Source: a virus. Taken from it: a stretch of 21,155 nucleotides of DNA. The notes beneath the pieces are model-generated. The model ran no database searches and was not told the origin of the DNA. It was given only the letters and a program-made list of their open reading frames with translations. The first letter of the stretch is position 1; every line of letters begins with the position of its first letter. The translations under genes were made by a program, and so were the position numbers. Positions 13,688 through 14,264 of the stretch are shown one piece after another. Location: IMG/VR virus record IMGVR_UViG_3300031788_001256; one strand, 5' to 3'.

Positions 13688-14008
13688 ATGAAGAGAAAAA
13701 ATAAACCACTGTTGTCCATTGAGAACGCACGAGAATTTAACGCCAAAATAGAGTGGGAAGGAAGTTTGGATTATGTTTTGCAGAACTGGGATTTTAAAGA
13801 ATTCAAAGATAAAAAATTCAATAGTTTGCGAAAAGCGTACATTAAGGCCCACCAGGATATGATGGATTATTGCTATCTGGATAGAGTTCTAGAAGATACC
13901 ACCGAACCATCAGATCTCGATGAATCTGACCGCTGCCCTTCTTGTGGAGATGCGCTGGAATTAAACGGTACATGTTATACATGTACGGGTGAGCAAAATG
14001 AGAATTAA
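13688..14008 (+). CDS. hypothetical protein with C-terminal zinc ribbon (CPSCG...CYTC)
   Basis: RBS AAGGAG. TGGTATTAT extended -10-like element at 13665-13673. Confidence 0.55.
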   Translation: MKRKNKPLLSIENAREFNAKIEWEGSLDYVLQNWDFKEFKDKKFNSLRKAYIKAHQDMMDYCYLDRVLEDTTEPSDLDESDRCPSCGDALELNGTCYTCTGEQNEN

Positions 14009-14264
14009 GCTCATCGTTAGAAAAAATTTGCACATGAGTGAAAATAAGCAATCCGCTCAATGTGTACATGCAGCTCTAGGGCTTTACAAAAAAAATCCGC
14101 AGGATCATTGGTCATGCGTGGTGCTGGATGCTAGCGATAAAAAATTCGAGGAAGCAAAAGAAGCGCATCCAGAGGGATATGTAGTGACCGATGCGGGCTA
14201 CACGGAAATTCCAGCGGGCAGTGAAACTGTTTTGGCTTTCTATGAGGATGACCCCAGAGAATAA
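13998..14264 (+). CDS. PTH2-family (archaeal/eukaryotic-type) peptidyl-tRNA hydrolase-like protein; alternative GTG start at 13989
   Basis: LHMSENKQSAQCVHAALG and TDAGYTEIPAGSETVLAF match the conserved AQCAHA and DAG-T-I-pGt-TVL blocks of PTH2 proteins (from memory). Short for the family, about 88 aa versus about 115. Confidence 0.5.
   Translation: MRIKLIVRKNLHMSENKQSAQCVHAALGLYKKNPQDHWSCVVLDASDKKFEEAKEAHPEGYVVTDAGYTEIPAGSETVLAFYEDDPRE

Follow-up and report, generated by a model that had tools for sequence, protein, structure and literature searches.

An open reading frame (ORF) whose product resembles type 2 peptidyl-tRNA hydrolase (Pth2) is located on the plus strand of the window, by which the whole analysed stretch of 21,155 nucleotides of viral DNA is meant (Table 1). 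Counted from a GTG codon, the ORF (13989..14264) comprises 91 codons for amino acids, and an in-frame ATG at 13998 gives a product of 88 residues with the N-terminus MRIKLIV. The ATG is most likely the start, because the homologues open with M(K)RIK and because a 99%-identical metagenomic protein (P0001) was called at 88 residues. Two motif blocks, SAQCVHAALG and TDAGYTEIPAGSETVLAF, were found in the translated ORF. The original prediction of a PTH2-like ORF at 13989-14264, with both of these blocks and set between tRNA genes, was therefore confirmed. According to ARAGORN, tRNA-Ser lies upstream and tRNA-Leu downstream; the same interval also holds two small Cys-rich ORFs.

Table 1. Features of the Pth2 region and of other parts of the window
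Feature	Position	Strand	Basis or remark
Transport-like run of ORFs	5294-9921	+	see text
SprT-like ORF, 242 aa	11433-12161	+	PF10263, E=5.4e-9
Sigma-70-like promoter match	12482-12510	+	11/12 positions; consensus scan
Intrinsic-terminator-like hairpin upstream of the tRNA cluster	12679-12698	+	consensus scan
tRNA-Ser (GCU/gct)	12711..12800	+	ARAGORN; Rfam tRNA 54.4 bits
HNH/endonuclease VII-like homing-type endonuclease ORF, 149 aa	12833..13282	+	PHROG 1035 endonuclease VII, E=9.8e-15, and several HNH PHROGs
tRNA-Ser (GGA)	13382-13470	+	ARAGORN; Rfam gathering score
tRNA-Ser (CGA)	13476-13564	+	ARAGORN
tRNA-Ser (UGA)	13570-13658	+	ARAGORN; Rfam gathering score
Upstream ORF, 106 aa, with C-terminal CxxC...CxxC zinc-ribbon-like end	13688..14008	+	last 11 nt overlap the Pth2 ATG
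Short-form Pth2 CDS	13998..14264	+	88 aa plus stop; alternative GTG start at 13989
Putative active-site codons K17, D65, T69 (88-aa numbering)	14046-14048, 14190-14192, 14202-14204	+	
Downstream Cys-rich ORF, 62 aa	14264..14452	+	ATG overlaps the Pth2 stop (TAATG); ends 1 nt before tRNA-Leu
tRNA-Leu (UAA/taa)	14453..14535	+	ARAGORN; Rfam tRNA 50.3 bits
Major-vault-protein-like ORF, 826 aa	18107-20587	+	PF11978, E=3.6e-26; PF17795, E=1.8e-8

The tRNA gene cluster and the surrounding genes

The Pth2 gene lies within or beside a cluster of phage tRNA genes, in which four of the five tRNAs called by ARAGORN were confirmed by Rfam at gathering score. The genes with the anticodons GGA, CGA and UGA stand back to back (13382-13658). 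Together the four tRNA-Ser isoacceptors (GCU, GGA, CGA and UGA) cover every Ser codon, with tRNA-Leu (UAA) in addition, and the Ser set is conserved in five related contigs (L004, L005, L115, L117 and L118). This full Ser coverage could reflect codon usage or host attack on tRNA-Ser.

On the same strand, the Pth2 gene overlaps both of its neighbours, as expected for translational coupling. The 106-aa ORF upstream gave a weak match to the Pfam family Zn_ribbon_PADR1 (E=0.0012, below the cut-off) and belongs to PHROG 17752, a family of unknown function; its N-terminal part alone is conserved, in L004. For the 62-aa ORF downstream, no family match was obtained in Pfam, PHROGs or NCBIfam, and the Cys-rich ORFs of 62-71 aa that occupy the same position in relatives are mutually without detectable homology. 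When ten ORFs of the window were compared with the related loci by tblastn, only Pth2 was common to them, apart from the N-terminus of the 106-aa ORF in L004. A zinc-ribbon partner that substitutes for the helices missing from the Pth2 product was also considered, and this idea was dropped because the small Cys-rich ORFs flanking the gene in relatives differ and are non-homologous. According to the consensus scans, a strong promoter-like match and a terminator-like hairpin precede the cluster, and no further terminator-like site occurs on the plus strand before a weak one at 14799-14815. The arrangement suggests, without proving it, that tRNAs and small ORFs may share one transcript.

The endonuclease ORF separates tRNA-Ser(gct) from tRNA-Ser(gga), as an insertion at a position held by a tRNA(UAU) in L005; a tRNA(UAU) is found immediately before tRNA-Ser(gct) in L004 and between tRNA-Ser(tga) and tRNA-Ser(cga) in L118. 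The genes called 'tRNA-Ile(tat)' by ARAGORN in L004 (8752-8846) and L005 (3816-3908), which sit among tRNA-Ser genes, are 93-95 nt long, with a long variable arm of class II type and the discriminator A73, whereas the tRNA-Ile(tat) of L118 has a normal length of 74 nt. Leu or Ser might be attached to a class II tRNA that carries a UAU anticodon, which would alter the reading of AUA. A remnant of the long tRNA(UAU) of L004 and L005 was sought in the window and none was found.

The DNA between 12600 and 14700 gave no megablast match among 50,697 phage records, and the NAD-dependent ligase of the window showed at most 32% identity to cultured phages by tblastn; the window is therefore without a cultured close relative. 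An 18-kb ENA metagenome contig (L034) is 98.7-100% identical to the window over 6274-21155, and among long contigs the nearest Pth2, at 81% identity, is found on one of 454 kb. Besides Pth2, the window encodes a NAD-dependent DNA ligase, an OmpA-domain protein, an ABC-type ATPase, a SprT-like protein, an HNH endonuclease and a major-vault-protein-like protein. Its source is taken to be an uncultivated and probably very large phage. The host is taken to be a bacterium because of the NAD-dependent ligase and the OmpA domain, and it is probably Gram-negative.

Several further observations were made on these genes. Past the region shared with the window, L034 carries nine more tRNA genes (Trp, His, four Arg, two Asn and Gln; 16295-18034), so that the tRNA complement of the phage is much larger than the five in the window. 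The 826-aa ORF, in which the major vault protein shoulder (PF11978) and a vault repeat (PF17795) were recognized, is also present in L034 and gave no match in the PHROG and NCBIfam scans; such a protein is unusual in a phage. Three genes make up the transport-like run: one encodes 643 aa with an OmpA domain at the C-terminus (E=4.8e-16), another (290 aa) gave a weak match, below the cut-off, to the BPD_transp_1 permease family, and the third encodes an ABC_tran ATPase of 288 aa (E=1.3e-26). The run may be a phage-borne ABC-type module. L034 and L115 also have the ORF with the SprT-like metalloprotease domain, again upstream of their tRNA cluster.

Family membership, active site and predicted fold

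At family level, the ORF is a Pth2. Its product matched the Pfam PTH2 profile (PF01981) with E=5.4e-12 and 46.4 bits (gathering cut-off 23) over profile positions 3-97 of 115. In a Pfam scan at E<=1, PTH2 alone was returned, and the bacterial Pth1 family Pept_tRNA_hydro (PF01195) was not matched. By phmmer against the PDB sequences, human Bit1/PTRH2 (1q7s, E=3.5e-6) and archaeal Pth2s were matched; with a profile from 26 family members, 1q7s was found with E=6.6e-13 and the Sulfolobus solfataricus enzyme (SsoPth2, 1xty) with E=4.2e-11. The equivalog cut-offs of NCBIfam were missed (TIGR00283, arch_pth2, 43.6 against 82 bits; NF003314, 39.7 against 126 bits), so that these profiles do not license an automated functional assignment as an equivalog.

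According to the HMMER alignment, K17, D65 and T69 of the product pair with K18, D86 and T90 of SsoPth2. K18 and D86 are reportedly catalytically important residues of Pth2 (Fromant et al. 2005). All 26 aligned family members have K17, D65 and T69 unchanged, and K17, D65, G67 and T69 were invariant in the short and canonical sequences aligned. Inside the close family, N10, L11, M13, Q21, H24, A66, G74, T77 and A80 were invariant as well.

Pth2 is a homodimer in archaeal and human crystal structures. A single-chain AlphaFold2 model, made with the 26-member family alignment, had a mean pLDDT of 95.5 and a pTM of 0.86, and contained four strands and two helices (E2-8, H15-32, E39-45, H47-56, E61-64 and E76-83). 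The predicted fold is the alpha/beta fold of Pth2, a four-stranded mixed sheet packed by helices. When the model was compared with the PDB by Foldseek, the first 14 matches were all Pth2 (query-normalised TM 0.50-0.79), and the remaining matches had E>0.3.

Canonical Pth2 has 116-120 residues, with four strands and four helices (PMC11202043). Measured against a full canonical protein of 115-120 aa, with its four strands, four helices, C-terminal helix and LKLL-type tail, the product of the ORF is incomplete. In an alignment with canonical-length relatives, phiM12 gp226, Bit1 and SsoPth2, three deletions were apparent: 10-16 residues after helix 1, where helix 2 of canonical Pth2, W...G..K stretch included, would lie; about 5 residues in the helix that follows; and the entire C-terminal 'GP..ID.VTG.LKLL' segment, the last ~18 positions of the Pfam profile (98-115) being absent. 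To survey the C-terminus, 240 collected proteins were scored with an HMM from six canonical-length sequences. The majority (158) ended at least 12 profile positions early with no more than 12 residues left, and a full C-terminus was present in only 23. Since most family proteins end early, the shortness is a family trait and not a truncation. By these alignments, the short-form class of about 85-95 aa, which lacks the helix after alpha1 and the C-terminal helix with the LKLL tail, is a large one.

The product is mildly acidic (pI 5.5, net charge -4), which is unusual for a stand-alone tRNA-binding enzyme. The median pI of the short form is about 6.5, against about 9.2-9.6 in three canonical-length relatives, with a wide spread that makes this soft evidence; as a discriminator between short and canonical forms, pI was rejected for that spread.

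These results bear on the identity that had been predicted. A PTH2-type product was borne out at family level by a Pfam score above gathering, by the Pth2 fold of the model and by the aligned K, D and T. Two of the checks that had been proposed, a search with the PF01981 profile (E=5.4e-12, 46.4 bits against 23) and structure prediction with inspection of the catalytic residues (Pth2 fold; K17/D65/T69 on K18/D86/T90), came out in its favour. The protein had also been called short for the family, which agrees with 88 aa against 116-120 and with profile positions 3-97 of 115, and possibly a minimal or divergent version, which suits four strands with two helices, the missing C-terminal segment and the sub-equivalog score.

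Distribution, selection and linkage to tRNA genes

Homologous proteins were found in large numbers. A set of 94 (42-99% identity, mostly 86-96 aa) contained PF01981 in all but three, and the largest contigs carrying them measured 454, 438 and 208 kb. With E<=1e-3, an exhaustive profile search yielded 3144 clusters (at 50% identity), of which 278 reached E<=1e-10; the best 150 were mostly proteins of 75-100 aa, and the short length and architecture recurred in more than 100 such clusters. In 185,579 species-representative cellular genomes, the best 80 matches kept comprised 79 archaeal ones (canonical Pth2) and one 3-kb 'Bacilli' MAG contig, all at or below 41% identity. Because the best cellular matches are this distant, the close family is seen only in viral and metagenomic contigs, and no close cellular homologue that would point to a host was found among those matches.

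Among cultured phages, tblastn gave 31 records, none above 40% identity to the Pth2 ORF. They include Vibrio phage ICP1, Pseudaeromonas KLEP7, Aeromonas phages, Vibrio phage 11895-B1, a 635-kb uncultured phage and the Sinorhizobium phages phiM12, M7, M19 and N3, whose proteins are annotated PTH2 and are of canonical length. Structure matches in BFVD add RaK2, Atu_ph07, VH7D, Myrna, CcrBL9, RB43, several giant viruses and fowlpox virus, and most of them already bear the name peptidyl-tRNA hydrolase. Many close homologues are given the same name by the JGI pipeline, and the two PHROGs families that match the ORF are listed as of unknown function.

The ratio dN/dS was measurable only for the pairs L004-L005, L005-L007, L005-L008 and L007-L008, dS being saturated in all pairs of the window with a relative and in most of the others, and values of 0.066 (L004-L005) and 0.086 (L007-L008) were obtained. 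By this estimate, the Pth2 gene is under purifying selection, with dN/dS of about 0.07-0.09 where measurable in relatives.

The close clade was defined as 10 distinct loci at 65% identity or more. In six of them (the window, equivalent to L034, and L004, L005, L115, L117 and L118) Pth2 is preceded at 0.3-1 kb by the cluster of four tRNA-Ser genes, which may also include tRNA-Leu(taa) or tRNA-Ile(tat), and in the other four (L006, L007, L008 and L116) no tRNA was found within 5 kb of Pth2. Of the 29 IMG/VR loci, seven had a tRNA within 5 kb, a raw count for which the chance expectation in a +/-5 kb window is, roughly, 5-10%. No tRNA was found within 4 kb of Pth2 in ICP1, phiM12 and KLEP7. In the cluster C mycobacteriophages, a PTH2-like gene is one of four genes common to ~96% of the tRNA arrays (PMC5966550). 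The association of Pth2 with tRNA and translation genes is recurrent and not obligatory.

Other genes were seen near Pth2 in single relatives. In KLEP7, split genes for a CCA-adding enzyme lie ~0.7 kb downstream (L003, 5006-6250), and L119 has a PheRS-alpha-like gene (tRNA-synt_2d and FDX-ACB; 5820-6815) 0.5 kb downstream. In the 208-kb contig L116, a TnpB/Cas12f-like OrfB_IS605 gene (9444-10378) is located nearby.

Proposed function and comparison with known systems

We consider it likely that the ORF is functional in the phage and encodes a compact esterase of the Pth2 family, which is probably co-expressed with the tRNA-Ser/Leu cluster and whose task would most likely be the cleavage of tRNA esters and the recycling of tRNA. 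Its catalytic activity, its substrate range and its benefit to the phage we infer as follows. Placed in a same-strand, tightly packed cluster of tRNA-Ser and tRNA-Leu genes, Pth2 would probably be expressed with that cluster. The putative activity would split the ester that joins an N-blocked aminoacyl or peptidyl group to the 3' adenosine of a tRNA, with drop-off peptidyl-tRNA and N-acetyl-aminoacyl-tRNA as candidate substrates, and in this way phage and host tRNAs would become usable again during heavy phage translation. Archaeal Pth2 complements E. coli pth(ts), and the growth of lambda is sensitive to host Pth activity (bar minigenes). If active, the product, at ~10 kDa, would be among the smallest peptidyl-tRNA hydrolases known. 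It would then add to the tRNA-maintenance kit of large phages (tRNAs, CCA-adding enzyme, repair enzymes and Pth2), and it would provide a useful minimal scaffold for Pth2 catalysis and for the action of phage Pth against tRNA-targeting toxins.

It is possible, if rather unlikely, that the same chemistry is selected mainly for counter-defence. The enzyme would then detoxify tRNAs that abortive-infection toxins of the host have corrupted, for example N-acetyl-aminoacyl-tRNA produced by GNAT toxins (TacT/AtaT/ItaT type), or, in a variant of this reading, would free peptides from the peptidyl-tRNAs stranded after attack by an anticodon nuclease, while the phage tRNAs replace the targeted host tRNAs. 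In vitro, bacterial Pth undoes the acetylation of aminoacyl-tRNA by TacT (PMC9241777), the PTH2 of jumbo phages was proposed by Iyer et al. to resolve peptidyl-tRNA after tRNA cleavage (PMC7824862), and phage tRNAs overcome the tRNA-targeting PARIS and retron defences (PMC11559606). The location of the gene beside a full tRNA-Ser isoacceptor set, kept in six of the ten close relatives, points the same way. However, a known toxin specific for Ser- or Leu-tRNA was not found, the neighbouring ORFs matched no known anti-defence family in Pfam, PHROGs or NCBIfam, and many family members are not close to tRNAs. Counter-defence and housekeeping recycling are compatible, not exclusive.

We regard as distinctly unlikely a phage-specific minimal Pth2 with a substrate preference of its own, for example for N-acetyl- or peptidyl-esters on particular tRNAs such as the co-encoded tRNA-Ser/Leu. 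Enzyme and adjacent tRNAs would then act as a pair to counter host toxins by which tRNA is corrupted or cleaved.

That the Pth2 fold has been re-purposed seems very unlikely. General hydrolase activity would have been lost, and the protein would act on another acyl ester (of RNA or nucleotides), cap or sequester the 3'-end of tRNA, or depend on a partner protein in place of the missing helices. The loss of helix alpha2 and of the C-terminal helix with the LKLL tail in 158 of the 240 family proteins would fit such a change, as would the scores under the equivalog thresholds, the acidic pI and the PHROGs listing of the matching families as of unknown function. Against it, short and canonical forms share the active-site K, D, G and T and, in helix 1, the Q..H with little or no variation, and therefore neither a pure binder nor a switch of substrate is expected; moreover, no partner gene is conserved, the small Cys-rich ORFs on the flanks varying between relatives.

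A decaying remnant of a canonical Pth2, or a chance ORF without function, is extremely improbable and, by family-wide conservation, effectively refuted: although the product is ~30 aa shorter than canonical Pth2 and lacks profile positions 98-115, its length and architecture recur in the 94 homologues (42-99% identity) and also in over 100 of the 50%-identity clusters, dN/dS is about 0.07-0.09, AlphaFold2 predicts a complete, confident domain, and the gene overlaps its same-strand neighbours at both ends.

The occurrence of Pth2 in phages, also inside tRNA arrays, is documented. The novelty implied in the original prediction was accordingly not sustained, as phage and giant-virus Pth2 had already been reported and annotated. 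Pth2 has been noted in Klebsiella phage RaK2 (PMC3622015) and in jumbo phages of groups 2 and 3 (Iyer et al. 2021; PMC7824862), and a peptidyl-tRNA hydrolase gene, which may be Pth or Pth2, in XacN1 (PMC5852040) and in a Cbk-like phage (PMC9127768). A literature search did not find an experimental test of any phage Pth2, the short form included. The chief effect of the finding is therefore to add an uncultivated lineage to a known pattern.

The closest cellular counterparts of the proposed recycling enzyme differ in several respects. Bacterial Pth (Pth1, PF01195), which is an essential enzyme for peptidyl-tRNA hydrolysis (PMC3488237), catalyses the reaction presumed here and is unrelated to the ORF in sequence and fold. 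The archaeal and eukaryotic Pth2s (P. horikoshii PH1539, 1wn2; S. solfataricus, 1xty; human PTRH2/Bit1, 1q7s) show 23-38% identity to the ORF in the alignment, with the motifs G/N-K-x-A-A-Q-x-x-H (K18 in SsoPth2) and D-A-G-x-T (D86/T90) kept. Unlike them, the protein has 88 aa instead of 115-120 and two helices instead of four, and it is encoded by a phage, probably of a bacterial host.

Among phages, RaK2 ORF188, the Pth2s of jumbo groups 2 and 3, phiM12 gp226, KLEP7 gp109 and those of Atu_ph07, VH7D and Myrna belong to the same family and to tailed phages, and the carriers are often large phages that also have tRNAs and tRNA-repair genes. The cluster C mycobacteriophages (Bxz1/Myrna type) likewise have a gene of the Pth2 family within their tRNA arrays; however, they are of another lineage and host, the Myrna protein is of canonical length (118 aa), and the array of the window consists mainly of four tRNA-Ser genes. 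In phiM12 gp226 the canonical long form with the LKLL tail is found, in contrast to the ORF. The same short form as in the ORF is represented by KLEP7 gp109 (93 aa, ~40% identity), which is annotated as peptidyl-tRNA hydrolase, and by ORF15.3 of Vibrio phage ICP1 (95 aa, ~36% identity), which is annotated as 'hypothetical protein'. What is mildly new is the membership of the protein in this large, apparently virus-restricted short-form class.
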